This document shows, in pieces, positions 15,225 to 41,400 of a stretch of DNA of 64,000 nucleotides (its first letter is position 1; each line of letters starts with the position of its first letter). A model generated the notes under the pieces. The model was not told where the DNA came from. It saw only the letters and a program-made list of their open reading frames with translations, and made no database searches. The DNA comes from Cystobasidiomycetes sp. EMM_F5 (taxonomy: Eukaryota). The stretch lies in contig JBPGPT010000012.1 in assembly GCA_051047955.1 (NCBI GenBank), positions 310,001 through 374,000 on the forward strand, written 5' to 3'. Made by a program: the position numbers and the translations under genes.

Positions 15225-18200
15225 TTACACGATCTCCCCGTCTGTCGGCGAAACTAGCGATGAAGGTAGAGAAGAACCCGCCATGAGAGGGAAGGCCTCC
15301 GAGTGGTCAACGGAGAAGCCCCGTTGAAGAGTAGGCTTTCTCGCGCGGATTGCTGTAGGCAGAATTCCATCCACAGCCCGCCAGACTCTGGTAAGACCGG
15401 GCACTGTTGAGCTCGAAGGCGAAGTCGGGCGTATGCTACCAGCCTTGAGTAGTAGAGGTGGTCTGACCCAACGCTTCAGCAAAAGGCTGCTGCTGACCAC
15501 GCTCACACTGCTCATGGCCATAGCTGCGCCTGCCAACATCGGGTGCAGGTGGATTCCCCAAGGGAGCAGAAAGCCCATGGCGAGCGGTATGCCAATGAGG
15601 TTGTAGATGGATGCCCAGACAAAGTTTGACTTGATCTTTCTGAAAATTGTACGGGAGAGATGCAGAGATGCTGCAACATCTAGTAGATCGGATCGCATCA
15701 AAACAATATCAGCGGCTTCGATGGCGATGTCGGTCCCGCTGCATAAAGCTATGCCAACATCAGCTGCTGCAAGGGCAGGTGAATCATTGACTCCGTCGCC
15801 AACCTACCGGAAGCAGGTGTCAGCAAACAGCCGTGTATAAGGAGATGCGACAATCTCACCATTGCTACCCGCAGACCTTGGCGCTGCATGCTCTCGATAA
15901 TATCCCGTTTCCCCTCTGGTTTAATGCCCGCAAAGACGTCTTCACCTGGGATGCCCACATCGGCAGCAATAGCTTTGGCAGTCGCCTCCTGATCGCCGGT
16001 AATCACGCAAACCGAAATGCCCATATACCTAAGTGCATCGACCAGCTGGCGAGCCTCAGGTTTAATCGTGTCCGCAAGCGAGATAACGCAAGCGAGGACG
16101 TTGTCTACTGCAACGAAGATGACAGTGCGGCCAAGAAGCTCCTCGCGGGTCTTGTATGCAAGCAGATTGCTTGTAACTACTATGCCATCCTTGGCCATAA
16201 AGTGCTCGTTACCGATACACACGAAATGCTGGGAAGATACGCCTCGTGTAACCTGGCATTTGATGCCAGAGCCAGTAACGCTCTCGAATGCCGATACGTA
16301 GATATCTGGAGGTAGCTCGATGAAGCCTAACGTCTTTCGTGCAAAAGTCCCCGCAGCCTTTGCAAGCGGATGTTCTGACTTGCTTTCCGCTGCGGCGATC
16401 ATGATCAAGATGGCTGCTTGCTCCTCGGACCAATGACTACCACGCCTGACACGATCAATATCGACAGATAGCTTGTCGGTCGGCGAAACAATCGATACAT
16501 CCATGTGCGCCCACCGTAGACCGACAACATCGAGCTGTCCCATGGTAAGGGTGCCTGTCTTGTCGAGGACAACGCGATTGATCTTGTGTGAAGCTTCCAG
16601 AGGCCCTGCGCCCTTGATCAATATGCCATTTTGGGCACCTACGCCTGTTCCAACCATGACTGCAGTTGGTGTACTGAGGCCAAGGGCGCACGGGCATGCG
16701 ACCACGATAACGGAAATACACAGCTTGAGGCATACCATAAATTTGTTACTGCCCTCTTCATGAAAGATATGCGGCAGATTAGCAGTAGTGTGCGCGATGA
16801 CCATCCAAGCGAAGAAGGTAAGTAGGCTGAGAGAGATGACAATTGGTACAAAGTACCCAGCGACGGTGTCTGCCATTGCCTGGATGGGCGCTTTGCTAGT
16901 CTGAGCATCCTCCACGAGCTGTACGATTTGACTGAGTGCGGTGTCCTTGCCTGCACGGGACACTCGCATATCAAAGGTGCCGAGCCCGTTTACCGTACCG
17001 CCCATGACGGAATCACCAATTCTTTTCGCGACGGGCACGACTTCTCCGGTGACCATACTCTCATCTATACTGGAATCGCCCTTAATGACGAACCCATCCG
17101 CCGGAATCTTGTCGCCGGGTACTATTTTGACAAGGTCATTGACCTGCACAAGCTCGGTAGCGATAATCTTTTCGACGGTACAAGTCGGTGGATCCAAGTA
17201 TATCGTCGCCTTTGATGGTGATAGGGACAAAAGCTTGCTTAATGCCTCGGATGTCTTACCCTTGGCCATATTCTCCAAATATCTTCCGAAGGATACAAAC
17301 GTGATGAGCATTGTAGAGGTATCAAAGAATACCTGAGGGTGATAATCCAAGTCGCCCAAGCACGTGCCGGCCAAGATTGCAAAGATGGAGTATGCAAAGG
17401 CGGCGGAGGTACCAAAAACGACCAAGACATCCATAGTGGGTGCGCGATGCTTGAGAGCTTTCGCCGCAGACTTGTAGAACCGTAGACCGACCCCAAATTG
17501 AACTGGTATTGTTAGGCATAGACAAACCAGATCGCCCAGGTATAATCCAGAGACGATGCGCAAGTTGACTATAGGTCTAGTCAGGGATATCATCGGGAAA
17601 ACCATGCTGAGAAAGAAGACCGGGAGAGCCAGTGAGAGCGACCGAATAAAGGCACGGCGCCACTCTTGTATCTCTTTAGTCCTAGCCAGCGATTTCAGCT
17701 GAGTTGAATTGCTCTCTTCTGATGATAGCATCGCATCGAAACCCATATCTTCAATTGCTTCGACGAGGTTTCTGACACCAACGGCGCTAGAATCATACGT
17801 AATCTGGCATCTCCCTGGCACGAGGGAGACAAAAACGGACTGAACGCCTGGAAGGGTTTTGATGCCCTTCTCTACAGCGGAAGTACAGCTTTATATGGCA
17901 GATGTCAGCAAATAGGTGACGGGACTCAAAAAAAGCTGACGGACGACGCGCATGTCATGCCAAAGACCGACAGAGTGACAGTGTCCTGACTACCACGGTT
18001 GGCGAAAGCCGAATCTGACGCAGGCAACGGATTGGCCTCGAATCCGAGATCCTATGGTGCACGCCATTAGCTGAGATGACTGCGATATCCCTTGCTATTC
18101 TCACTTCAATCTCGCTAGCCAGCTTTTCCAATGTCCATAACGAAGGATCGTAGTCAATTGTTGCTTTCTCAGCCCTGTCAGCAACACAAATCAGCAAATA

Positions 18201-20824: not shown

Positions 20825-23141
20825 ATGGCTAACAATAACTACTCCTACGACGACGAGATTGACCTTTATGGCGACGTTACCGAGGCTGCCTCTCCAGGAA
20901 AGTCTGGCAACGCAGGCGGTTCGAATAACCAAAATGGTGCTGGCGGTCAAGCGGATAGACCCTCGGATGCCTACGACAACAAGCAAGCTATCTCTTCCAT
21001 ACCAACCTTCATCAGCGAGGCCAGAGGCGGAACGGGCATCATACCAATGCGTGACGAATTCTCCCGGCGAAATGACGGATCTGGCCAAAAGAACGATTAC
21101 GGCAACGATCAGCAGCAACAGTGGCAGAACCGACCCATGAATAACGCGCGATCAGCAGACGGTCCCGACGAAGGGCGAGTGTACTTCCTCTACAGATCGT
21201 ATCCCCTTAGTCCCATCCGCGCGGACTTTTCAGCGGTCTTACAGACGAAAGCTTTGATAATTTAACGAATCGTAATAGCTTTAGTTCTCATAGCGCAGCT
21301 AGCTATACTGAGCTAGCTGGTCGGTCTTGGATTCGGCCATACGCATTCTACAGCTCATCTCATAAAGCATAACGATACCGTGTATCGCAGCATTCACACT
21401 ATATCGTCATATTCCCAGACTAGCGAGTCAACTAGGTATATAATAATGCAGTGCTAATACGTTCTCGTCTTGTTTTTTCCTGTGTCTCGTGTCATTCGGT
21501 GCAAACTATCTTGGCTATCTCTACCCCTCTACTGTGCGCTCGCTTACGAAACCGCGCGGCGCTCTGTATGTTTCGCAATTTGTTTACAAACATACAGCAA
21601 GATGTTCATTGGCGGTCTCAATTGGGAAACAACCGAAGGTCAATAGGACGCTCGTGCTTGTGTTTCAGCTGGCGCAGCATACTGAAAATCCGACTGCCTT
21701 CTCCCATGTAGAGTCAATGCAAAAGTATTTTGAGCAATTTGGTGAAGTTGCGGCCTGCACAATCATGAAGGACCCACATAGCGGACGATCACGAGGCTTC
21801 GGATTCCTCACTTTTGCAGATCCGGTTGCTGTAAACACGGTGATGGTGAAAGAACATTTCCTCGATGGCAAAATTGTAAGAAATATTCAGATGCCTTCGT
21901 CAAAGCGGTCTTGACTAACATGTATGCCCGCATAGATCGATCCTAAGCGAGCTATACCCCGACCAGAGATGGGCACTATTCGTAATGACAAACTGTTTGT
22001 ACGACATGTCCCGCAATCTATGGATTACTACAAGTTCAAGGAATATTTCTCGCAATTCGGTACCGTTGTTGACTGCAACTTAATGATGGACCGGGAGACC
22101 GGTGTTCATCGCGGCTTTGGCTTCGTGACCTATGAGGATGCGTCGAGTAGTGCTTCAGCCGTCAACCAGCAGCACGAGTATGATGGTCAATTCGTATGTT
22201 ATCCTCAGTTCCACTATAGCGTCAGCTGACTTTGCCTGTGACGTTCAGCTCGAGGTAAAGCTTGCTACCCAGAAACGCGACCGCGACTCGACATATGTAG
22301 GTGACCGACCGAATTTCGGCCGCAGAAACTATGACCAGGGCGGACGAGGCGGTGGGAACTTTAACAATAACGGAGCATACAATAATGGCCCTAATGACAT
22401 GGGTGGCATGGGCATGGGTAACATGAGTAACATGGGCGGTGGTATGGGAGGAATGGGCGGTATGGGCATGGGAGGTCAAGGCGGCCAGGGTGCTTTCGAT
22501 CCGTATGCCATGGCTCAATTCTTCAAACAGGTATATCATGCCGTAATTTCCTTCAGATGCGACCGTTGACACTGACTGGCCCTGGTTCTGCGCAGATGGG
22601 TTGGGGGAACTTCAATCCAATGATGGCCATGCCCGGTATGATGGGCAACGGTGGTATGGGCATGGGTATGGGTATGGGAGGCATGGGCGGCATGATGGAC
22701 CCGAGCATGATGGGCGTAAGTCTGAAGGGCGCGAAGTCTGAAGCCCATAGCCTGACTAGACGTTTCTTATGTGTACAGATGATGGGGGGCATGAACGGCA
22801 TGGGAGGCATGAACCCTATGGCCGGCATGAGTGGTATGGGAGGCATGGGTAACATGGGCTCTATGAACAACATGGCGGGCATGGCGACAATGGGCAACAT
22901 GGCTGGCGCGCAGTCCCCTCAGAGCGGCTTCGGCGGCGGTAGCGATGTTAAGATCCCTTCCGGCCCAAAGGCACAGTCGAGCGCTTCTTCAAGTACAGCA
23001 CGACAAGCTTCGCCCGCTGATGCTAAACCACCTTCGAATGCGCCAACTGGACCTGCAGCTATGAGAGGGGGCGGAAGTGGCGGAGGAGCTGGACCAGTGC
23101 GGAACAACCGAGGAGGCAACCGCGACCATCCATACCGCTAG
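20825..23141 (+). CDS. HRP1: Two-RRM RNA-binding protein, Hrp1/Nab4-Musashi-hnRNP A/D family, with Gly/Met-rich low-complexity tail
   Basis: DLYGD N-terminal motif, KMFIGGLNWETT, RSRGFGFLTF, IDPKRA, second RRM RGFGFVTY, C-terminal R...HPYR PY-NLS. Confidence 0.85.
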
Positions 23142-28240: not shown

Positions 28241-28802
28241 CTATTGCCAGGGATTTGGGGTAAAGGTTGCAACTATTCTTGCAACTTGTACACACTGTAC
28301 ATGCATGTAGCAACAGGGAGCGAGCGGCCAAGGCTTGAAGTCAATCTGATCAGACAGGGCGACGGGACGAGTGAAGAGTGTGAAGTGTAATTGATTCGAC
28401 ACTGGGCCGAAGCGTACAGGTCATAAATATCGATGTCGCCCGTCCATGGCCCGTATCGCAAGAGCATTGCGGGCTCATGTTCTTAGCGTATCTTGTTTGC
28501 ATACACGACGCCGCTTTCTTTGCCGCTGTTCGTAAAAGCGTGCGGATACCCCGACAGGTCGCTCTATAGCTAAGGTGCTGTGTTTGTGAATATAAAATCG
28601 GCTTCAATACGGAGTCAGTGAATGCCAGAGATATCCTGCGGGCCGGAGTGCAATAGGCGAATCTGTTTCTTGCGCAACGACTTTCTACCTTTCCCACTTT
28701 GTCCTTTGACAATCGTCATGATACATCCTGCGACGTCCACAAGGGCAAGCTGCTAGCCATGGAGATCAGCACAGGCTACATTTGTCGCATAAGAGCATCA
28801 GA

Positions 28803-31800
28803 ATGTCGTCGAGAAATGGCGATGTCAGCGCCAGTATCGCAACGAAGGCAAGCCGTCCAAAGCCTGGACGAACAGCCCGAGACGGCCGACGCGAGAATCT
28901 GCTCAAACGACTGGGGACTTTGCATAGTCTTTCCGTCAACAGTGTAGCATTGCTGGCAGTCGCCTTCATTCTTCTTCTCCATCTCTGCGCTTTGACGCTC
29001 TTTTCTCGTGGATTCCTTCTCAGCCGCACAACACTCGAGAAGCGCAATCTGTGCAATGTCGCATCACGGGACTGCACTTTGACGCCAAAGTTTGACCGAG
29101 CTATCATTCTGCTCATTGACGCTCTGCGTTATGACTTCCTCTTGCCCGCGGATCCGACACTGTCCTCTTTCGACGGGGCACATCATAATCATTTGACGCT
29201 ACCAGGTCAACTAACCGCTCGCTGGCCAGAGCATTCGCTGCTCTTCAAAGGCGTTGCGGATCCGCCTACCACAACCTTGCAGCGCCTAAAAGCTCTGACA
29301 ACAGGAAGTCTCCCTACATTCGTAGATGCAGGTTCAAACTTCGCAGGAAGCGCGGTTGAGGAGGACAATTGGCTCGAGCAAGCGAATAGAGCTGGAAAAC
29401 GTATTGCTTTTATGGGCGACGATACGTGGCTTACCATATTTCCAGAAGCAATCTTTGCACCGAATCTCTCATTCCCCTTTGATTCGTTCAACGTAGAGGA
29501 TCTGGATACTGTGGATCGTGGGGTCAGGAAGCATATTATTCCATTACTAGATGAGCCCGCGGCCGGCTCGTCCTGGGACATCTTGATTGCACACCCGCTT
29601 GGGCTAGATCACGCCGGACACCGATTTGGCGCTTCACACGCAGAGACATCGCGCAAGTTGGACGAGATGAATGCTTTACTGCTCGATGTCGTCGATCGCT
29701 TGGCAACAAAGGATCTGCTCATCGTGCTGGGTGATCATGGCATGGACTCCAATGGCAATCACGGTGGCGACAGTCCCGACGAAACCGATGCAGGCTTATG
29801 GATCTACAGCAAGACTGCACTGACTCCCTCTAATGTCCTGGATATACAGCCATTCCGACAGTCGTCTAGCACATTGACGTCATTGCTGGGGCTTGCGCCA
29901 GATGGTTATGCCGAGTTCTTCCAGCATCACGGCACGACCACCCGTAGCGTGTCGCAGATTTCGTTAATCCCAACTTTATGCCTGCTTCTGGGCATTCCAA
30001 TTCCGCTCAATAATTTGGGCACCGTCATACCGGAACTTTTCGTGGAAACTACAACGGCTTCATTGCTTCATCGTGCGGTTCATGGACCTTCAACCAACCA
30101 ACTCCTTCAAGCTATGCGTATTAACGCGATGCAAATTCGAGGGTATATTGAGGAGTATACGTCGAGCAAAACTGGCTCGGATCTAGCTCCTTTCGCAGCT
30201 AGCTTGCAAGACGCTTATCAAGCTGCGTCAGCTGAAGGCACGGAGGCTGCTGAATTCGTCGCACTGCGCCATTTCACATTCTCCGTATTGCGAGTGACGC
30301 GAGGCATATGGGCAAGGTTCGACGCTAAACTCATGCTTGCCGGCGTGGTCGTGTTGTTTGGGTCGCTCATCGCAATTTGGCGCTTCTATTGTCTGAGCCG
30401 GCAGCCAGGGCCTCTTTACCGGAAGGGCGTCCTTCGCGCAGCCTTGGCTCAAGGTACTTCGGGCGCAGTTATTGGCCTGACATGCGGAGTACTAGCTCTG
30501 TTACTCTCGAGAGCATTGTCGACCCAGGCTAATCTGTCTAGCAACATTGTGATTTTCGGTACGAGCATCGGTGGTCTGGCAGGTATCCTATCATATCGCA
30601 AAGATGCAGAATTGGAGTCACCCGCGACAACCATATCCACGTCTGATTACCTCGCCGTAGCTCAAATTCTCCTCCATAGCATTATGTTTGCGTCGAATTC
30701 GTATACGATGTGGGAGGATAGGGTCGTACTATACCTCGTGCAGATGACCTCTCTGGTCCTCGTTATTCAGGGGCACCGCGCATACATACCGCTGTTACGA
30801 TTGCGCATCATTCGCTTCGCGGTCCTTTCGATGATGCTGCATCGCTTCATTGCGTTCTCTACCATATGTCGGGAAGAGCAACATCCATACTGCAGTGCGA
30901 CTTTTTATGGAAGGAGCGGTGTCAGCACGGCTTCAGGGTCAGCATTCGGCCTTGCAATTCTCGCTGCCATCTTCCTTCCCACCATCACCGCCCGCTTCCT
31001 CGATATTGCCAAATCTCGTCAGGGATGGGCGTCCTTCATCCTGAGGTACAGCTTCAGATCGCTGCTACTTGCTGGTGTGCTGTACTGGATAGCGGAATAC
31101 TTCGAACATGAGGGGACACCTTCCCAAGTGCGCCTGTTGTCAACATTCCGAACCACTTTGGCGAGGTCGCAATTGCTATGCTGTCTACTACTGGGGAGCA
31201 CGTTCTGGGCTACTTCACCGGTATGCGTATCTGTCATAGAGCAGACATTCGAAAAGGAGGACGGGCAAACCTCGACCAAAGTATCAGTCATCGGATTCGC
31301 GAACGCCGCCGGAGCCTCATATCTCCTCGTGTTCATCGCTCTATTCAGTGGTATATTCCTACTCGCTCAACCTGTCGGTCAGTTTATCTACGCCATCGGC
31401 CTCGTTGCTCTGCTTTCTTTTCTCGAAGCCAATGACAGCAACCGCGATGCAGAATTGCTCCTCTCGCGAGCGCAAGGCAAGATGCCTCCGCTTGAAGTTG
31501 AAGGTGTCTCAGTGCGCCCAGATGTGCCGCCGTCGTTGATGAGCATATGTTATTTGGTACTCTGGGGTTTCAACATTTTTTTTGCGACGGGCCATCAAGC
31601 TGTATTGTCGTCTATACAGTGGAAAGCAGCCTTTATCGGATTTCCCGTACTCACTTATCCCTTTTCTCCGATATTGGTAATCCTCAATACTTTAGGTCCG
31701 TTCATACTGTCTGCTGCAAGCGTGCCGCTACTCGTCTTTTGGAATACATCGCCCACCATGAAGAACGGACCTTCCATGCCAGTATTGACCAATATACTCA

Positions 31801-32033
31801 AGGCATCCTTTGGCTTCATGTTTTATCACACATCGACGACGTTGGCAACTGCTGCATTTGCTGCTCACCTCCGCCGGCATCTTATGGTATGGAAGGTATT
31901 TGCTCCGCGTTTCATGTTGTCTGCGATCACTCTGCTCGCGGTAGACGCTACTCTGCTTTTATTTGCCGTAGGATGGGGCACTTTGGGGACGTTGAGAAAG
32001 CTCAAAACGACATTTGGTTCGGCCTGGTGCTGA
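28803..32033 (+). CDS. GPI13: GPI ethanolamine phosphate transferase 3 (PIG-O), single uninterrupted ORF
   Basis: LFSRGFLLSR, IDALRYDF, ADPPTTTLQRLKALTTGSLPTFVDAGSNF, GLDHAGH, GDHGMD, FFATGHQ, HLRRHLMVWKVFAPRF. Confidence 0.96.
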   Translation: MSSRNGDVSASIATKASRPKPGRTARDGRRENLLKRLGTLHSLSVNSVALLAVAFILLLHLCALTLFSRGFLLSRTTLEKRNLCNVASRDCTLTPKFDRAIILLIDALRYDFLLPADPTLSSFDGAHHNHLTLPGQLTARWPEHSLLFKGVADPPTTTLQRLKALTTGSLPTFVDAGSNFAGSAVEEDNWLEQANRAGKRIAFMGDDTWLTIFPEAIFAPNLSFPFDSFNVEDLDTVDRGVRKHIIPLLDEPAAGSSWDILIAHPLGLDHAGHRFGASHAETSRKLDEMNALLLDVVDRLATKDLLIVLGDHGMDSNGNHGGDSPDETDAGLWIYSKTALTPSNVLDIQPFRQSSSTLTSLLGLAPDGYAEFFQHHGTTTRSVSQISLIPTLCLLLGIPIPLNNLGTVIPELFVETTTASLLHRAVHGPSTNQLLQAMRINAMQIRGYIEEYTSSKTGSDLAPFAASLQDAYQAASAEGTEAAEFVALRHFTFSVLRVTRGIWARFDAKLMLAGVVVLFGSLIAIWRFYCLSRQPGPLYRKGVLRAALAQGTSGAVIGLTCGVLALLLSRALSTQANLSSNIVIFGTSIGGLAGILSYRKDAELESPATTISTSDYLAVAQILLHSIMFASNSYTMWEDRVVLYLVQMTSLVLVIQGHRAYIPLLRLRIIRFAVLSMMLHRFIAFSTICREEQHPYCSATFYGRSGVSTASGSAFGLAILAAIFLPTITARFLDIAKSRQGWASFILRYSFRSLLLAGVLYWIAEYFEHEGTPSQVRLLSTFRTTLARSQLLCCLLLGSTFWATSPVCVSVIEQTFEKEDGQTSTKVSVIGFANAAGASYLLVFIALFSGIFLLAQPVGQFIYAIGLVALLSFLEANDSNRDAELLLSRAQGKMPPLEVEGVSVRPDVPPSLMSICYLVLWGFNIFFATGHQAVLSSIQWKAAFIGFPVLTYPFSPILVILNTLGPFILSAASVPLLVFWNTSPTMKNGPSMPVLTNILKASFGFMFYHTSTTLATAAFAAHLRRHLMVWKVFAPRFMLSAITLLAVDATLLLFAVGWGTLGTLRKLKTTFGSAWC

Positions 32034-32193: not shown

Positions 32194-32253
32194 CCAGAAT
32201 ACTACGAAGAATGTGCTGCAGTTATTTTCGTAATACTTGTCGTAGTATTCTGG
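32194..32253. repeat. 14-bp perfect inverted repeat (hairpin) just outside the left TIR
   Basis: CCAGAATACTACGA (32194-32207) and TCGTAGTATTCTGG (32240-32253), 32-nt spacer. Confidence 0.85.
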
Positions 32254-32275: not shown

Positions 32276-32354
32276 GACGAGCTAGTGGGGTCTGCCAAAG
32301 GTCTGCTCCGGACCCTACCGGACCCTCCCGTGACCCTCGCCTGGGCTCACCGCT
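32276..32354 (+). repeat. Left terminal inverted repeat (79 bp)
   Basis: GACGAGCTAGTGGGGTCTGCCAAAGGTCTGCTCCGGACCCTACCGGACCCTCCCGTGACCCTCGCCTGGGCTCACCGCT; its reverse complement matches 37479-37557 with 2 mismatches. Confidence 0.97.
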
Positions 32355-32356
32355 CT

Positions 32357-33286
32357 CTAGCTAACATTTGCGAAGTTTCCTTGGGCAGCCTTGATGGCTT
32401 TGTTAACTCTTCGCTTGAAACGCAACTAGTTTGAATGGTGGGTGATGTAGGCGGCGTACACGCATCACTAGATAATGGTCTAGCTGCACACCGTTTCGCT
32501 TTACGTGGTGAGATAGCATTTACAACGATTTGCTTCTGTGTGATCTGGTGGACTTGATGTTCGGAATTCGAGCACGTGAAACTTTTCTCCGTACCAGCCT
32601 AATTTCATGCGGACTTCCTTCGCGCTTGATTGTCCTGTTTTTAACATAATCTGCACTTCCCTCTCGTTCTTTGCCTTTCCCCTTGACCCGCACAGTTCGC
32701 AAACCTTCGGCCGAAGCCTGCACTGCCTCAGGCGTTGTTTTAGCTACAGGCGCATTGAGTGAACCAAAGGGCACGAGCGCTTTGGCGCGTGCAATTCTTT
32801 CAGACGGATCCATATCTTGGGCGCAGAGCGTACTGTATAGCTTCTGAATAAGATCCACGGCGTAAGGGAATGGCTGGTTTTCGTGAAATTCCGGCAGCTC
32901 TTCAAACAGCTCCAGTGCTAGCTTCAGCTAAATCCAACTAATTAGATAGCTATTCATCGAGATCCGACTCCGCTTACATCGGCTGAGGCAGACGAAGGTG
33001 CATCGAGATTTAACCAGCAGAATGCCGCGAGTATGTACGCCTCACAATTTGCCACCGCTCCGCTGTCGTCCCTGATGTTATGGTACACCCAAGCTACAGC
33101 TCCAGCGTAATCACCTTCCTTCATAGTGTTCATTATCTCAGCGTTGTCGACGGACTGCTGGTAGTATTCCAAAATGAAGTTGCGACCCCTGTTATGCAAC
33201 GCAATTGAGCAGGTGCATCAGCAGCAAACGTGCAGCATGCATACGTACAATTCTACCAACGCTCTCATCTCGCTTGTGGTCGCCAT
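32357..33286 (-). CDS. Orphan protein A of the TIR cassette (~250 aa; helical N-terminal half, basic/disordered C-terminal half)
   Basis: Three canonical GT-AG introns give one open frame MATTSEMRALVEL|GRNFILEYY...SASAD|LKLALELFEELP...HEIRL|KQIVVNAISPRKAKR...GNFANVS*. Confidence 0.7.
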
Positions 33287-33443
33287 AAGAGCCGTCACCA
33301 AGATACTAATAACGCAGGAATTACTCTAAGAACAAGATCAATTGGGCTCGAGCGTGACTCACGGGGTCACTCACGGGTCCGTTCAACGAGCCTGAACATT
33401 CTCGACCTCCTGACTGCGACTGCTAAGCCATCAAACCGAGAAT

Positions 33444-36400
33444 ATGTCAATCGCTAACGAAAAGATGGGTCATTCTGCGGTTGTGGAGACAGCAGCCGAG
33501 ATTACACCAGATCTGATGATTCCAGAGGATCTGCTGGCGAATCTGGCCAAATTGAAACGTGAAATTGTCACCAATACAGACTTGGCGAGTTTCTCTGTCG
33601 ATTTCTGGACTCTTTGCCTGGCGGCTGCTCGTCAGATCCACACTATCGCAGATCAGCTCCCTGCAGCAGGCTTGAAAGGGGCTGCAAAAAAGCGCACAGG
33701 CCATCCGTCAAATATTTCGAAATGGCTATGGGAATCACGAGAAGGCCGGTCTCTTAATCCTGATGCTCTGGTTACAGGAATGGGAATTCTACATTCTTTC
33801 ATTGAAGAGCATCGAGTCAGCGTTCTGGAACATCGAAACGCTCCCTCAACAACACCAGAAACCGACTATCCTTTTTTGTGGCCAAATTATGATGACATCG
33901 TCGATGTCGTCGCCTACGTGCCACAGTCGCAGCTACTACGAATCGGGCTCAAAGCGCATGGCTCTCGGAAAGCTACAGTCAGAGCGGCTAGCTTAATTAG
34001 CTGGAGCGCTCTGGACATACCAGCTACGCCCGGCAACTCAGAACACGCGTTCACAAAAGACGAGATCATGACACAACCGAATCTTGCAAAGCTATTAAAC
34101 GCTTACATACGGGAGCGTCAGACGGGCGGCGGATTTGAGAAGGAGCTCAAGCGGATCAGGGCCGTCATGGTACCGAAGTACACCAGCAGAGAGCATACTC
34201 ATGCAATCACATATGTTAACATTCCTGGTAAATCTCTTAATTCTGGCCAATATTGGTCTTTAAAGTATCGCAAGCTTGTTTTCCAATTGATGTGCCAAAG
34301 AGTGACTAAAGCTACAGGTGATTGCTATCTCCAACATGGCGCGAGCATACTGAACCAGCAGTATTACAGGAGTGCTTGAAGACCTCGCGCCCTCGCTTCG
34401 ACCAGGACAGCTTCCATTCTCCATTTGGCTCAGACAAGAAGATTCTGAAATGCCTAAACCCAGTGAGACCGAGGAGACATTCATCAGAACGTGGGCCAGC
34501 AGTGTGCTCTCCATCATCGATGCAGGCTTGGCGATGGAGAAAACGAGTGGGCGTTTTCTGACATATACATGAAGTTGTCTCATATTGATGTTCGTGACAC
34601 AGAAACTGAGATCAAAGAAGTAGTGACTGCGTATTCCAATACTGCTAGTCGCGTTCAAAATCTAGGTAAGAGAGAGATACGGAAGTCCGACGTATGATGC
34701 GCTCATTTTTGTTTGACAGCGCTGTCGAGCCATGAAAGAGATCTACAATTTTGGTCATCCCAGGACGGGGTACGTCAATGCAAGCTCTGGATAGACCGCC
34801 CGGATCTACGCGTCTGCATCTACTTTTCCATACCAATGCGGATTCATCAGGACCGAGCGCAATCTTTGTGGCAAGCTCTCAAACGGCAGTCGCAGAATCT
34901 ATGGTTGAACGGTACAATGTTCGCCCTGATAATCGATCTTATAAGTATGTCAGCAGGGAACATAATATGCAAACTAGCGGAAATACGCGATTCTGTATGC
35001 GTGGATGATCTCAACGAAGACGATACGTTCGATGACACTGAGCATACGCATGAATCAACGGAAGACAAGGTGGGTCAAGTAGTGTCACCAGATACAAATA
35101 CCAATTCCGGGTTGTCGACAGGCCGCTTGTGCAATTATGTTGCGGTGTCACCTATGTGATCTGCCCTTTGAATGCAGGCTTTCGCCTTGGCACAAGAAAA
35201 CGTTATGTCCTACGCATAATGTGGGTAATGATTATCATTCGTTTCACATCCAGCTGATGTATCAGCAGTCGATGTATGTTGGCCAACACGTACAGGGCCG
35301 CACGCCGCTGTTCCAGTCAATTGCAGACAATGCCGACATTCCAAACCGCGGTGCTGCCGAAGTCTCCGATTTCATGCAAACTGCAGTCACGTCGCTCAGA
35401 GCAGAATGTAGGCTGTGGTGTATCTGCCTCCGAATCAATGGATCAAAAGGTTTCAATCGAGCAATACTAAAACTGACAGATACCATCCGGCAATACAATC
35501 TGGGTGTACCCGACGGATGGAACCCTGTACTGACCTCGACCCGCGAACAGAATGGGATAGACAAGCGGATTTGGACCTACCGCCTACTCCAAGTCGTTGA
35601 TATTGATTTTGACATGGATGAGGGCGTCATGGACATGTGGCTAGCGAATGGGATTGAGGTACAAAAAATACAGGCTTATAGAAGCCGGTTTCATCGCGTA
35701 GTATCATATGGTAACCAAGTTTGCATGAGCTCGACCGGAGGAAATAACTGATGCCGTCTCACAGACCACCTCGCCGTTCCCAAGCCCCTCATTGCTTCGC
35801 TCGATCAACATCGGGTTTTCTTTGCGAATAGAATCTGTTTACGCACAGGTCATACGCAAGATAATGTTGACGTAGTGCCTCGCCACATCAACTATTTAAA
35901 GCACACATACCCACCGGAGTGGGTGAGCTTTGCGGCCATGGAGCGCTTCAAGTTCTGTATTTTGGCTGGTCTTCTCACCACTCTCGATGCGCAGAAGCTG
36001 GAAGCAGATGCAACGGCTTTAATTTCAGCCTTTCACAAGGTATCAGCCCGGAACTTCTGCGTATAATCATCATACTAATCTTAGGATATCAGCTTTCCTT
36101 GCTTGTGCCTAATACTAGGCAGGGCCGTTCTACCGCGATTGGAAACAAATCGCTACGAGAAGCTGTATACGCCGCCTATGGACCCATCATTGAGTTTGGT
36201 CGACAAATTGGGCATGAAGATGAGGCCTATGCGTTCTACGAAAGTACTGCCGACCGGCAGCCACAACAAGTGCAGATCAGTGGCACAGTAGAGCCTGCAA
36301 AACCGCTTGTCGGTTTGCGAGAACTTTGTCAGTGGCGGGCCGAAGATTATGGCGACCAGCTTTATAGGTCCGGTACAGCCAGTCAAGCCGCCAAATTTCT

Positions 36401-37242
36401 GAGCTCTCTTGAAGGGACTTTGAAAGACTTGCAGAGTGGTATGTAACGCTACAACCGACCGATCAGTGGAGTGTGAATTTGACTGCGATCTGTTAGATCT
36501 TACTTCGATGGAAAATGGTGAATTGTCACTGGTCGGCGTTCATGTAAGCCACAAAGCATAGCAAATCGAACCAACTAATTCTGGAGTGGGACAGAGCCTG
36601 ATTTCTCAAGAGTTTGTCCTTTTCAAATGGTGGCACTATTTCTTGCTACTCGAATGGTGTGATGGGTGAATCATTGTTACGCTCGATAGCGAAAAACACT
36701 GACTTTCATTGCTGGTCAGATACGGCTCGTGTATGATTGCGTTTGTGTTCGTTGCGTTTTGGGTGGTCAACTGGACTCAGCTCATCAAATGCCGAGGCCG
36801 TTGTCCGCTTTTTGGTTTCCGTTTGAGTGCGCGCCGCAAAGATCTCACAGCAATGGTAGACGCTCACCGCGTGCACGGACTGTCAATGGCTTATTCCATT
36901 CAGCAATTTCCGGATGTGAAGTCGCTGGCAGATCTCCGTTTGGATCTCGGCAATTTGTGTGTACAATCCAGGACCGCCAACTACTGGCTGCACAACTTTG
37001 CTTATGAAGATGTTCGGCTTGCCGATGCTCAGCTTCTTCGCATTGGCCATGAAAGATTCCGGTCAATGTATCCTAGTCTTTACTCAATCCTGGCTGATAG
37101 CAAAACTTTGGAAGATCGGCTTGCTCGGCTCTCCTGTGAATCAATTGAAGGCTTTGAAGATGGGCCATACAATCGGTACTGGGATTTGGAGCCGGATCAC
37201 ATACTGCACCCGTCGCAAGGCAATACGCATGTGACGATGTAA
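33444..37242 (+). CDS. Orphan protein B of the TIR cassette (roughly 1,100 aa if continuous); putative HNH-like (beta-beta-alpha-metal) nuclease
   Basis: A chain of exons joined by ~50-nt GT-AG introns; CHLC..CPTH motif (35146-35217); SLD...GHTQDNVDVVPRHINYLKH (35797-35904); second motif AHRVHG...NLCVQSRTANY. The junction at 34490-34572 is ambiguous. Confidence 0.6.
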
Positions 37243-37478
37243 AAGCTCGTCAAGTGGCTGTCTCCGCATCGTTTCCAGAGCTGTAGCAGTCATCATCGTT
37301 ACGCTTCAACAACAGTCTGTATACCACACTAAGCAAGTATGTTGTAAATCCACCCTGCGGTAAATGAAAGATGGAACTGGAATCTTAACGATAACATACG
37401 CCTATTAGCCATTTGACGACCTGAACAGCGCGGTTGGCCCTTCAAACAAGCCAAGTTGAATGAGTGACAGCAAAGCAC

Positions 37479-37557
37479 AGCGGTGACCCCCGGCGAGGGT
37501 CACGGGAGGGTCCGGTAGGGTCCGGAGCAGACCTTTGGCAGACCCCACTAGCTCGTC
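37479..37557 (-). repeat. Right terminal inverted repeat (79 bp)
   Basis: AGCGGTGACCCCCGGCGAGGGTCACGGGAGGGTCCGGTAGGGTCCGGAGCAGACCTTTGGCAGACCCCACTAGCTCGTC; the outer 66 bp match the left repeat perfectly. Confidence 0.97.
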
Positions 37558-37949
37558 AAGGAATCGATTGGGAGGTCCATTGGCGATATAATGTGCGCAC
37601 ATCAGTAAATCTGAATGTAATTATATAGTGTATAGATTCCTAATGCGGTATCTCCGAAATTGCTTCGTTGGTGTAGGTGAGGAATTGAGAAATCCACTCG
37701 CTTGTGACAACTCTGACACAATTAGCAGTGGTTGTAAGTGCACGGCAGATTCGTTCAGTGCCAGATCTGACCAGATATTAGGCATTTTCGCTTTGGGTGC
37801 GAGAGGTGATCGGTTCAATCCCGGTACGAGGCCATATCTTTTGCCGCGTGCAGGCAGAGCGTGTACGGGTTCATCATACGCGTATTCAGCACTATCGCGA
37901 TACCACCGTGCCTGACTGAGCGCCCCTTTGCAGCCTGACAACCGCAACT

Positions 37950-38367
37950 ATGGCAGAAACGGTAACGAGACGCATATCCAAAGCACTGTGACGAGTCTGA
38001 TGAGTCTGCAGTCGCATACATATGCATTCGAGGTCGCAATGACTTGTGGAGGATGTTCGGGCGCCGTGCAACGCGTCTTGGACAAAATGGAAGGTGAACA
38101 GCTGCTCAGACAGGATAGCAACCGTTTTAGAATCTGACATTGTCGCATACCAGGTATCAACGTCCAAGAAGTCAAATGGGAGACTAAGAGTGTCATTGTC
38201 GTCGCTCCAAATGGCACCCCGGACTTTGACACTGTTCGAGAAAAGATAGCCAAGACTCAGGTATAGACCTCCCTCCTAATCTACAGACCGTCGCTGAGCG
38301 ATGTGCACAGAAAAAGGTGATACGGGGCACTGACAACGGGATCGAGGTTTACAAGGCAGACGCATAG
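37950..38367 (+). CDS. ATX1: Copper chaperone Atx1 (single HMA domain), 4 exons
   Basis: Spliced MAET|SHTYAFEVAMTCGGCSGAVQRVLDKME|GINVQEVKWETKSVIV...VREKIAKTQ|KKVIRG...; MTCGGC motif and KT.K loop. Confidence 0.92.
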
Positions 38368-38435: not shown

Positions 38436-41400
38436 CTATTCCGCACTACTGGTGTCTCGTTTATCGTTGTCCTTTGTTTCAACAGCTGCCATGCTTGGGA
38501 TTTGTATGCTCGATGAAATATCAGCTTGGATCTCCTCCGCTGGCCCGCCCGCCGTCGACTCGTTCACATCGGTAGCGCGCACAATATGGGATGTTGCTGT
38601 TTGTGGGCTGTGATCACCGTGACTTGTGTCATCTGCTGGCACAGTCAACTTCGGCATGAAAGCCAGATGTCCTGCTGACTTCTGCGCTGATTCGACGTTG
38701 CTTTCAGTGCTGGCATCTGCGGCTGCATCGGTCGATATTGAGGGAGTTGCTCCACTTGACAGTCCGGCTCCCAAAATTGGCTCTCCGGCCGTTTCTGAGC
38801 TGTTGCTGCGATTACCGAGACCGCCAAGACTCAAAACTTGCGGTAATTTTGGCAGAGTAACGTTGATGGCCGGGATCGTCGCCGTACTTCTCTTACTGAA
38901 TAAGCTAGCTAATCGATTTTTGACATTGGCGCCGGTAGGCGGACTGCTTGCCTCGGATCTCTCAGTGGAAGCGGTGGCAGGGAAAATATGAGCCGAAGAC
39001 TGCGGAGATGCCACAGGAGGCAGTGTCTCATCGGCCAATTTGACCTGGGCGATTGCAGATATGACCGACGGATCCTGAATGTTCGTGCCAACAGACACCG
39101 ACTGTTCGCGTTCACCGTCCAATGCGTTCTTTGCCGGCATCCCCACCGCAAATGGCTCGTTAAGTCGCTCTGAGTGAGAAGATTCAACGTCCGCCACATC
39201 CATAGCTACAATTGTTGGTGATGGAGGCAGCGGTATCTGCTCTGGTAAAAGAGACGCGGAAGCAAGATCCAGCACATTCCGGACCGTTGCGCCTTCGCTG
39301 CTTGCTGTTTTGCCAGGGTCCACGATATTTTTTGGTACCAACTCAAGTTGCTGAGGCGCCTCTGCAATCGGCGTAACGGGCTTGTCCGGTAGCGCCGGAG
39401 GCTGCTCCTCCTCCTCTCTCCTAACACTACTGAGCGACGATGTTCTGCCACGACTAAGGGATGCGCGAGCTTGTGTGAGAGCAGGAGTCGAGAACGCCTT
39501 CATAGGTGGCGCCGGTTGAGGTGCAGAAACTCTTTTCATCCGGATGAGATCTTCCAACTCAGCTCCCGGTGCGGGCCTCTCCAGCCCCTTCAGCTCGGCA
39601 AATTTAGCCTTCATATACCTAGCGTCGATGAGCATTCGCTCCTTTGCAATGTCTGTCTTGACTTCGATTCTACTGTATTCTTCGGCGAGTCTTGAGTTTA
39701 TCGCAGATAGGACCTGCATCATGACGAGCTCCAGAGCGGCGCCCGGCAGGAACCGGAGAAGTACCTTGTGTAGGGTAGACGTTTCCTTGACCAACGTTTC
39801 CATGTATGAATTCGGATCGTCACCCGCTGGCTGGTCCCAGGGTAGCTTTTGTAGAGATTCTGCATGCACTGCGAGGCGATCGCCCATAATGGCAACTAAC
39901 TTTGCGTGAATTTCGTTCTGATGTTCTTGGTAATCTCTTTTCACTCTGTCAAAATCGACAAGAATGATAGCTTGTTTAGCACGAAGATGGCGTCGCAAGC
40001 ACTCTCGTATGTATGGGATAAGGCTGATGACGACCGATAGCGCTTGTGAGGCAAGAGCAAGGTGTTTAGCTGTAATATTCTTCAATCCGGCTGAGCGCAT
40101 CGCCCCAGCCCCAAGGACGACTTGACAAACACGCGAGTTGTATTGCTGCAGATAAGGTTAGTCTATGTTTAGCTTCAATGCTCGCGACACTCGCCTTTAA
40201 GAGCTCGACGATCCTGCTCATGATATCGGTTGCAATTGTAGGTAGGTTGAGCACAATTTTGAGATAATCCAACAGGGATTGAACGAGAACCAAGCTGGAA
40301 GAAACGGTATAAAAAGTACGATCTTCGATACTCAACAATTTTCTAGACCCTGCGGAAATGGTCACATTTGCCGGACTTTGCACATCCTGTTTCCGCAAGA
40401 GCAGAGTCACAGGGTCCGCCACAGCGGAGCTGAGAATGAGGTCGACAGCTCGTTGCACATCTGCAGGCACATCTGCCGTTGTCCACTTCTCCTCTTCAAC
40501 GTCTCTAGCGACTTGAGTAAGCCGAGATATGTGGAAATACTGTAAGTAATGCTTCGTCTGCGTAAGCGCAAGTCAGCCACTTCATCAAATTGAACGATAA
40601 AGTAGGCTTACTTGGCTGAGGATCACTGCACGTAGGCCGACTACCATTTTGCGAGACAAAACTTCGCAGTCTAGAAGAAATTGCCAATTCAGGTCGTAAG
40701 CTTCTAAAAACTGCTTCAATTGTAAGCTCTCGATCTTTTCGTTTCTACTGCCGACAACGCGAGCGAGACGCGCGTTCGCGTAGTCCGCAACGGCAGGAAC
40801 TACCGTACCCAGATCACCGAAACGAGCATCGTCAATAGACGACGAATCTGGCTCTATGTCTTTGATGCTGGAAGACCCATCTCCCGGAGGGACGGGAGCT
40901 GATATGAGAGACAGCAAGATTCTGGAATGCAGAGCTGCCACCTTAATACACAGTAATACCGCAGGATAAACTAGATGCATAAGAGACATGTATTGGCGAT
41001 GATCCATGCCAGCAAGGTCGGATGAGGCGGGATTTGATGACGGATCCTCAACGTCAATGGATGCCCTAGGGGAGGATGTGTCGATGTCCGCTATTTCTTC
41101 TGCATCGCCTGGTGGCAGGAGCTACGCGCCAGCATATCAGCCATGTAACGAGATCGCCACGATCAAAAGACCCACATTATTGAGTATCAATCGTACTTCT
41201 TTCAAATACGCCATCTTGTATAAAGCGAAGGCCTGAGCGGTGCAGCGCTCGCCGCAGCGAAGCAGCAGAGTGAGCAGATCTAGCAATTTGCCCTGCAACG
41301 TATTGTCGAAGTCTGCGATGGAACTATCGGATTTGTCAAGGCTAACAGGCTCGAGAGCTGTATCACGCGATTGATGCACTTGTATTTGCAACTGATGGAT

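Follow-up and report, generated by a model that had tools for sequence, protein, structure and literature searches.

Two HNH-like strings in a fungal gene carried on an inverted-repeat cassette

We analysed a 64,000-nucleotide (nt) stretch of contig JBPGPT010000012.1 from Cystobasidiomycetes sp. EMM_F5 (the window; all positions refer to this 64-kb stretch) and found in it a 5,282-nt cassette (32276-37557) that consists of two divergent genes, A and B, and has an inverted repeat at both ends. Gene B (33444-37242, forward strand) is an intact, lineage-restricted fungal gene of 10 exons, carried on this cassette together with gene A, which encodes a small basic protein. The 1,104-residue product of gene B contains two strings that resemble each other and the HNH motif of His-Me finger nucleases. 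A reading of gene B as a tandem His-Me finger protein is plausible but unproven from its sequence, and the claim that it is a nuclease rests, as it stands, on motif-level and sub-threshold evidence.

Three motif strings are present in the spliced product of gene B, with one reading frame per exon, as a preliminary description of this DNA had claimed. The first, CHLC-x16-CPTH, has the form C-x2-C-x16-C-x2-H (35146-35217, forward strand, residues 497-520) and may be a zinc-binding site. The middle string, ASLD-x14-GHTQDNVDVVPRHINYLKH (35794-35904, forward strand, residues 695-731), is HNH-like and contains D698-x-H700 followed by N718-x8-N727-Y-L-K-H731, with an adjacent D685-H686 pair upstream. 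The third, GRCPLFG...AHRVHG...DLGNLCVQSRTANYWLHNF, is the C-terminal HNH-like string (36796-36999, forward strand, residues 957-1024). The positions first given for the strings needed little correction: the first was exact, the second had been started 3 nt late, at the S (35797), and the third had been placed at 36800-37000. Directly after the C-P-T-H codons of the first string we observed a candidate extra in-frame intron (35221-35265 or 35221-35268, GTGGGT...CAG, 45 or 48 nt), which, if used, would drop 15-16 residues and leave CHLC...CPTH untouched.

One pattern is common to the two HNH-like strings, D-x-H-R-V ... N-[VL]-x-V-x-x-R-x-x-N-Y-x-x-H, in which the two Asn are spaced as N-x8-N; the cores read N718-V-D-V-V-P-R-H-I-N727-Y-L-K in the middle string and N1009-L-C-V-Q-S-R-T-A-N1018-Y-W-L in the C-terminal one. 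When exon 6, which holds the middle string, was compared with exon 10, which holds the C-terminal string, BLASTP returned an expect (E) value of 0.049 (single comparison) and hhalign an E value of 0.16 in the same register. The alignment of the two strings in one register suggests an internal duplication. We then counted matches to a core pattern, N-[LIV]-x-[LIVW]-[LIVTQ]-x4-N, which was composed after seeing the data, a caveat on all of its shuffle statistics: gene B has two matches against a mean of 0.022 in 2,000 shuffles, none of which reached two, and two more matches fall in the remaining ~128,000 residues of the window's six-frame translation. With this caveat, the motifs exceed what chance would give. 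Preceded by D-x(0-1)-H, the same core gave three overlapping matches at two distinct sites, compared with a shuffle mean of 0.002 and a six-frame background of 0. The cysteine pattern of the first string, written as C-x2-C-x(10-25)-C-x2-[CH], occurs once in gene B; this count was reached by 12 of 2,000 shuffles (0.6%) and there are nine matches in the six-frame background, so the pattern is only mildly unusual.

The strings depend on the gene model, and the earlier statement that they are seen after splicing was borne out. Nine predicted introns of 51-58 nt each, all GT..AG, join exons 1-5 (33444-34317, 34370-34546, 34603-34665, 34720-35069 and 35122-35710) and exons 6-10 (35765-36039, 36093-36438, 36497-36543, 36595-36665 and 36720-37242) on the forward strand into a frame of 1,104 residues without an internal stop. 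Intron 9 (36666-36719) was placed with the help of related proteins that read EWCD...[YW]W.xFxFxTF straight across the junction. An alternative model of the tail with an intron at 36657-36719 was rejected, as it introduces a TGA. Two stretches exceed a Kyte-Doolittle hydropathy of 1.7 in a 19-residue window, residues 436-456 (~34912-34974) and 932-950 (36721-36777), and from their composition these could be membrane helices or buried core. The codon use of gene B lies at a distance of 0.596 from the pooled open reading frames (ORFs) of the host, within the range of 0.516-1.285 found when each of eight host ORFs was compared with the rest, and we rejected a foreign origin of the gene by codon use on this basis. 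Its G+C content is 0.489, slightly below that of the host ORFs (0.515-0.538). With codon use in the host range and G+C content only slightly lower, the cassette is not a recent arrival from a distant genome.

The C-terminal string lies within a conserved domain that we delimited with HMMER relatives (36595-37239, forward strand, exons 9-10, residues ~908-1104). The layout of this domain comprises an aromatic and hydrophobic stretch at residues 932-950, C959, D978-x-H980-x2-H983-G, N1009-x4-S-R-x2-N1018-Y and H1091-x-L-H-P...H1101. An exhaustive HMMER search with the product of 36781-37239 against 1.84 billion representative proteins returned seven relatives with E values from 7e-45 to 7e-4; identity in the alignment is 28-49%, and all are short ORF fragments of 89-217 residues. 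The preliminary description had suggested a resemblance of its second motif to uncharacterised fungal proteins, and of this the existence of seven relatives, none of them named, is the part that stood. It had also named loss of the Asp, His and Asn residues among homologues as a sign against its reading. In the C-terminal string these residues are kept: counting the relatives that cover each column, D978 is present in six of seven, and H980, H983, N1009 and N1018 in all seven, as are C959, G984, S1014, R1015 and Y1019. The terminal histidines are kept as well (H1091 and H1094 in 5/5, H1101 in 5/6).

Two of the relatives, P0001 and P0003, carry 20-23 extra residues exactly at the position of intron 9 (54 nt) of the window. 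It looks as though an ORF caller had translated an unspliced intron at this point, which suggests that both proteins are also eukaryotic and come from a gene of the same structure. No DNA encoding the relatives was found in metagenome, prokaryote genome or viral contigs, collections that include no set of fungal genomes.

To place the strings, we compared them with known His-Me finger nucleases. According to Jablonska et al. (2017, PMC5714182), the superfamily is marked by a His in strand 1 that hardly varies and in many cases follows D, E or H, and by an Asn or His in the first turn of the helix. Such sequence-level features are present in both copies in gene B, as D698-x-H700 with N718 and N727, and as D978-x-H980 (plus H983) with N1009 and N1018. 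In three HNH_3 domains from one Serratia phage record, [D/N]-H is followed after 11-13 residues by N-L-x-[WI]-x-T-x3-N-x-x-[H/K]; an N-x8-N spacing with hydrophobic residues at +1, +3 and +4 is found in all three of these phage domains and in both gene B strings. The likeness to the HNH_3 homing-endonuclease type comprises, in matching order and spacing, an acidic residue with a His, an Asn, the hydrophobic positions, a second Asn nine residues later and then x-x-[K/H/L]. There are also differences: gene B has D-x-H, with one residue between, where HNH_3 has D/N-H, its loops are 17 and 25-28 residues long compared with 11-13 in the three examples, and it holds two copies in a 1,104-residue, intron-bearing nuclear protein that has no significant profile match. 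The consensus S-x-D...G[YH]..., which the preliminary description had called established for phage and viral His-Me fingers, appeared in no result of this analysis.

Family and language-model searches pointed to HNH nucleases for the middle string. In a PHROG search of seven gene B exon pieces, exon 6 gave two sub-threshold matches, to phrog_3322 (endonuclease; E 0.037) and to phrog_3118 (HNH endonuclease; E 0.051); these two were the only family matches in gene B that name a function, and both cover G-H-T-Q-D-N-V...N-Y-L-K. A protein-language-model search with exon 6 returned as its nearest cluster 'HNH domain-containing protein (fragment)', with a score of 0.91 and 163 shared features, and at rank 15 (0.87) a PF01844/PF13395 cluster in which 72% of the members carry PF01844; among shuffled proteins, 4-10% reach scores near 0.9 by chance. 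Searches of a word index with exon 5 (at longer and near lengths) and exon 6 (at near lengths) turned up no homologue beyond P0008, the window's own protein, which is weak evidence of absence as the index requires shared 5-residue words. No members of phrog_3118 were found in two jumbo phage records. Matches from tblastn searches of phages and plasmids with exons 6 and 10 were at chance level, and the best of them, in Gordonia phage Fenry (E 0.1), was discarded as it lies antisense to an annotated gene.

The ends of the cassette are formed by a left arm (32276-32354) and a right arm (37479-37557) of 79 nt each. The arms are 97% complementary, and in an alignment of the two their outermost 66 nt are identical; they are the only inverted-repeat pair of such length in the 64 kb. 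The terminal 21-mer does not occur in the window beyond the two ends, even with three mismatches allowed, and within the 64 kb we found neither a second copy of the cassette nor a solo end. Each arm holds three tandem units of ~10 nt, which in the left arm are CCGGACCCTA, CCGGACCCTC and CCGTGACCCTC. We found no target-site duplication: the flanks, ...GGTACTTGCA on the left (...CTTGCA) and AAGGAATCGA... on the right (AAGGAA...), have no direct repeat in common.

Between the start codons of genes A and B lies a divergent promoter region of 157 nt (33287-33443). It contains the heptamers CGGACCC and GTGACCC once each, in opposite orientation (33364-33381), and the repeat arms are built of the same two heptamers (32309-32336 and 37483-37524). 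CGGACCC has nine sites in the window, five of them in the cassette, and GTGACCC has six, four of them in the cassette. This distribution hints that the heptamers could be binding sites common to the cassette ends and the promoter. Gene A (32520-33286, reverse strand) has three exons (33286-33249, 33188-32978 and 32927-32520) separated by predicted GT..AG introns of 60 and 50 nt, and encodes 218 residues in an open frame. Its C-terminal tail is basic, with 20 K/R in the last 69 residues and an isoelectric point of 11.6, and is like a nucleic-acid-binding or nuclear-targeting tail. Neither of gene A's two large exons had a family match in Pfam or NCBIfam, nor had the largest exon one in PADLOC. 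P0008, the one database protein identical to part of exon 5 of gene B, was recorded on one contig of 5,210 nt, about the size of the cassette. The inverted repeat would interrupt an assembly graph, and this contig therefore need not mean that the element is free or multi-copy.

The surroundings of the cassette are those of a core chromosome. The window has no N, and its long frames are interrupted by short GT-AG introns; we take it for part of a nuclear chromosome like that of a filamentous fungus. In a family search, the large ORFs around the cassette matched housekeeping families, among them a GPI ethanolamine-phosphate transferase-like ORF (28722-32030) upstream and Vps54 (38439-40157, reverse strand) downstream, and further housekeeping matches in the window include a CorA-like transporter and isopropylmalate synthase. 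With such genes on both sides, the cassette is an insert in the core chromosome. It starts 43 nt past the stop of the upstream ORF, the GPI ethanolamine-phosphate transferase-like one (stop at 32233), in an intergenic spacer, and ends ~360 nt ahead of an HMA/Atx1-like exon (37916-38137, forward strand), which it thus immediately precedes. A copper-type P-ATPase with an HMA domain (15752-17890, reverse strand) lies in the same window, 20 kb from the Atx1-like HMA exon. At 22441-22864, within an ORF at 22431-23141, there is a repeat family of the type GGTATGGG that encodes Gly/Met-rich repeats and resembles a low-complexity protein stretch. Scans of the whole window for transfer RNAs and against Rfam returned no match.

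We tentatively favour, with somewhat less than even confidence, the explanation that gene B carries genuine duplicated His-Me-finger modules and acts as the endonuclease of a selfish cassette. On this explanation the two paralogous modules, D-x-H ... N-x8-N-Y-x-x-H (residues 698-731 and 978-1022), would be diverged HNH_3 or I-HmuI-like nuclease modules. In both modules the general base, at the end of strand 1, would be the His that follows the Asp; the hairpin would be held by the first Asn and the metal bound by the second, with which the helix begins. Each module could cut one DNA strand, the two together producing a double-strand break. Most economically, gene B would cut the cassette ends or the empty target site, with repair then copying the cassette in. 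That no target-site duplication is present although the ends are perfect fits repair copying after a nuclease cut and argues against a DDE mechanism, an argument that draws on a single locus. Whether as an agent that mobilises or homes the cassette or as a poison, the role of gene B is something we only infer.

A number of results weigh against the nuclease explanation. Pfam gave no match for any exon of gene B and, for exons 5, 6 and 10, no HNH match even at an E value of 10; NCBIfam and PADLOC gave none for its exons, and sequence searches of the PDB with exons 1, 5, 6 and 7 and with the C-terminal family alignment returned weak, unrelated matches only. Against a three-sequence HNH_3 (PF13392) profile, hhalign gave an E value of 0.4 for exon 6, in an alignment that does not cover the motif, and 0.59 for the C-terminal family, in one that does; neither is significant. 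The PHROG matches fell below threshold, and a language-model atlas search with the C-terminal exon found no informative neighbour, its recognition score being below the threshold of the tool. AlphaFold2 models of the C-terminal exon with its seven relatives and of exon 6 alone were all-helical and too poor to read (predicted local distance difference test scores of 48.0 and 45.3), and at values below 50 the missing beta hairpin is not evidence either way. The loop from His to Asn in the C-terminal copy is long, at 25-28 residues. Hydropathy at residues 932-950, which directly precede this copy, reaches 1.92 (at residue 935), and should this stretch be a membrane helix, a nuclease at this place would be unlikely. 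Of the cysteines in the C-terminal string, C955 is kept in four of seven relatives and C1011 (of 'NLC') in one of seven, so that the zinc-type reading earlier proposed for this string is weak. The cassette itself is one locus, and no second copy, empty site or expression stands behind the explanation. Of the original claim of two HNH-like motifs, what is supported is the presence of the motifs, their likeness to each other, the N-x8-N spacing, the pointers to HNH for the middle string and the conservation of the D/H/N residues in the C-terminal one; a beta-beta-alpha fold, a Pfam HNH match and a significant score against the HNH_3 profile did not emerge. With the fold unseen in the models and no family model matched, we do not assign gene B to the His-Me finger superfamily.

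Several of these results would be expected if the strings were not His-Me fingers at all, a serious possibility that we nevertheless think somewhat doubtful. Gene B would then be an orphan fungal protein whose C-terminal domain has another His/Asn-rich fold, which may bind metal and for which a hydrophobic or membrane segment serves as anchor; the resemblance between the middle string and HNH would be a short-motif coincidence and the function unrelated to DNA cutting. The lack of a significant match to any HNH model speaks for this, together with the all-helical (if unreliable) models, the uninformative atlas search of the C-terminal exon and the hydrophobic stretch at residues 932-950, whose aromatic and hydrophobic character is kept in the six relatives that cover it. 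So do the conserved histidines at the C terminus, H1091 and H1094 being invariant and H1101 nearly so, which no HNH pattern needs. Set against this are the exact N-x8-N spacing and D-x-H pairing, found twice where 0.002 was expected, and the mutual alignment of the two strings in the HNH register. PHROG and the language model, moreover, point independently to HNH for the middle string, and the H/N/N residues are invariant in all seven relatives.

It is unlikely, in our estimate, that the cassette is a conventional cut-and-paste transposon with terminal inverted repeats (TIRs), in which an unrecognised DDE or RNase-H-like transposase resides either in gene A or in the N-terminal ~650 residues of gene B. 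In that case the HNH-like modules would be accessory, like the small His-Me nuclease of KolobokP, a eukaryotic TIR transposon described as having such a nuclease beside a DDD/E transposase (PMC9587614). The long, near-perfect terminal repeats (79 nt, 66 of them perfect) would suit such a transposon, as would the compact two-gene layout around a 157-nt divergent promoter in which the heptamers of the arms recur, and the insertion among housekeeping genes. DDE transposons leave a target-site duplication, and none of any length is present at the perfect termini of the cassette. No transposase family is matched by the exons of gene B or by gene A's two large exons; the protein family, with seven relatives among 1.84 billion, is very rare, unlike typical transposases, and the 64 kb hold no second copy or solo end. 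We regard as quite improbable a poison-antidote pair of the killer or meiotic-drive kind, in which gene B would be a nuclease toxin and gene A its small basic neutraliser. Two tightly linked, divergent orphan genes, a large nuclease-like protein and restriction to one lineage make a circumstantial case for it; there is no similarity to known killer or antidote families, nothing physically links gene A to gene B, and the inverted repeats are left unexplained. The weight that remains falls to explanations other than these four.

If the strings are real His-Me fingers, gene B has an undescribed architecture, a tandem HNH arrangement in a 1,104-residue, intron-bearing nuclear protein on a compact inverted-repeat cassette. 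It would then be a candidate sequence-specific double-strand nuclease, and the cassette would point to a route for moving DNA in fungal chromosomes that lies outside current transposon classifications. If they are not, the C-terminal domain is still a very rare conserved domain, with seven relatives in 1.84 billion and an invariant H/H/N/N set. In a search of the full-text literature, with supplementary element lists outside its scope, we found no description of a fungal TIR element with an HNH protein. It is a long shot, though one worth stating, that the cassette is the first example seen of a class of mobile elements in eukaryotic nuclei whose movement depends on a tandem His-Me-finger endonuclease and not on a DDE, tyrosine, serine or HUH enzyme. 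Such an element would have inverted repeats at its ends, would insert with no target-site duplication and would encode, as gene A, a small basic partner protein by which the 10-nt repeats of both the ends and the gene A promoter are recognised.

Known systems resemble the cassette in part. Homing endonuclease genes are small, usually consist of a single ORF and have no TIRs; in organelle or phage genomes they occupy introns or inteins or lie next to a conserved target. Cutting of an empty site and copying by repair would leave no target-site duplication, as at the cassette; unlike these genes, the cassette is a 5.3-kb nuclear unit of two genes, put here at 12 exons in all, that sits in an intergenic spacer between inverted repeats. 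Mutator-like and other long-TIR cut-and-paste transposons have long TIRs with internal short repeats and a size of a few kb. The cassette shares all of these features, and differs from such transposons in having no target-site duplication, no match to a transposase or zinc-finger family, and a very rare protein family.

The nearest printed mobile element with a His-Me nuclease is KolobokP (Kojima and Bao 2022, PMC9587614), a eukaryotic transposon that combines such a nuclease with terminal inverted repeats. Its authors proposed that it propagates in two ways, by transposition and through cleavage by the endonuclease. KolobokP is described as a many-copy element, reported from seven animal phyla, with a DDD/E transposase, long terminal direct repeats and short TIRs of at most 18 bp. 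A nuclease-type protein, here at the level of motifs, and inverted repeats are what the cassette has in common with the KolobokP of that account; the cassette differs from it in having no recognisable transposase or direct repeats, in being seen as one copy, in its 79-nt inverted repeat and in its fungus-like host.

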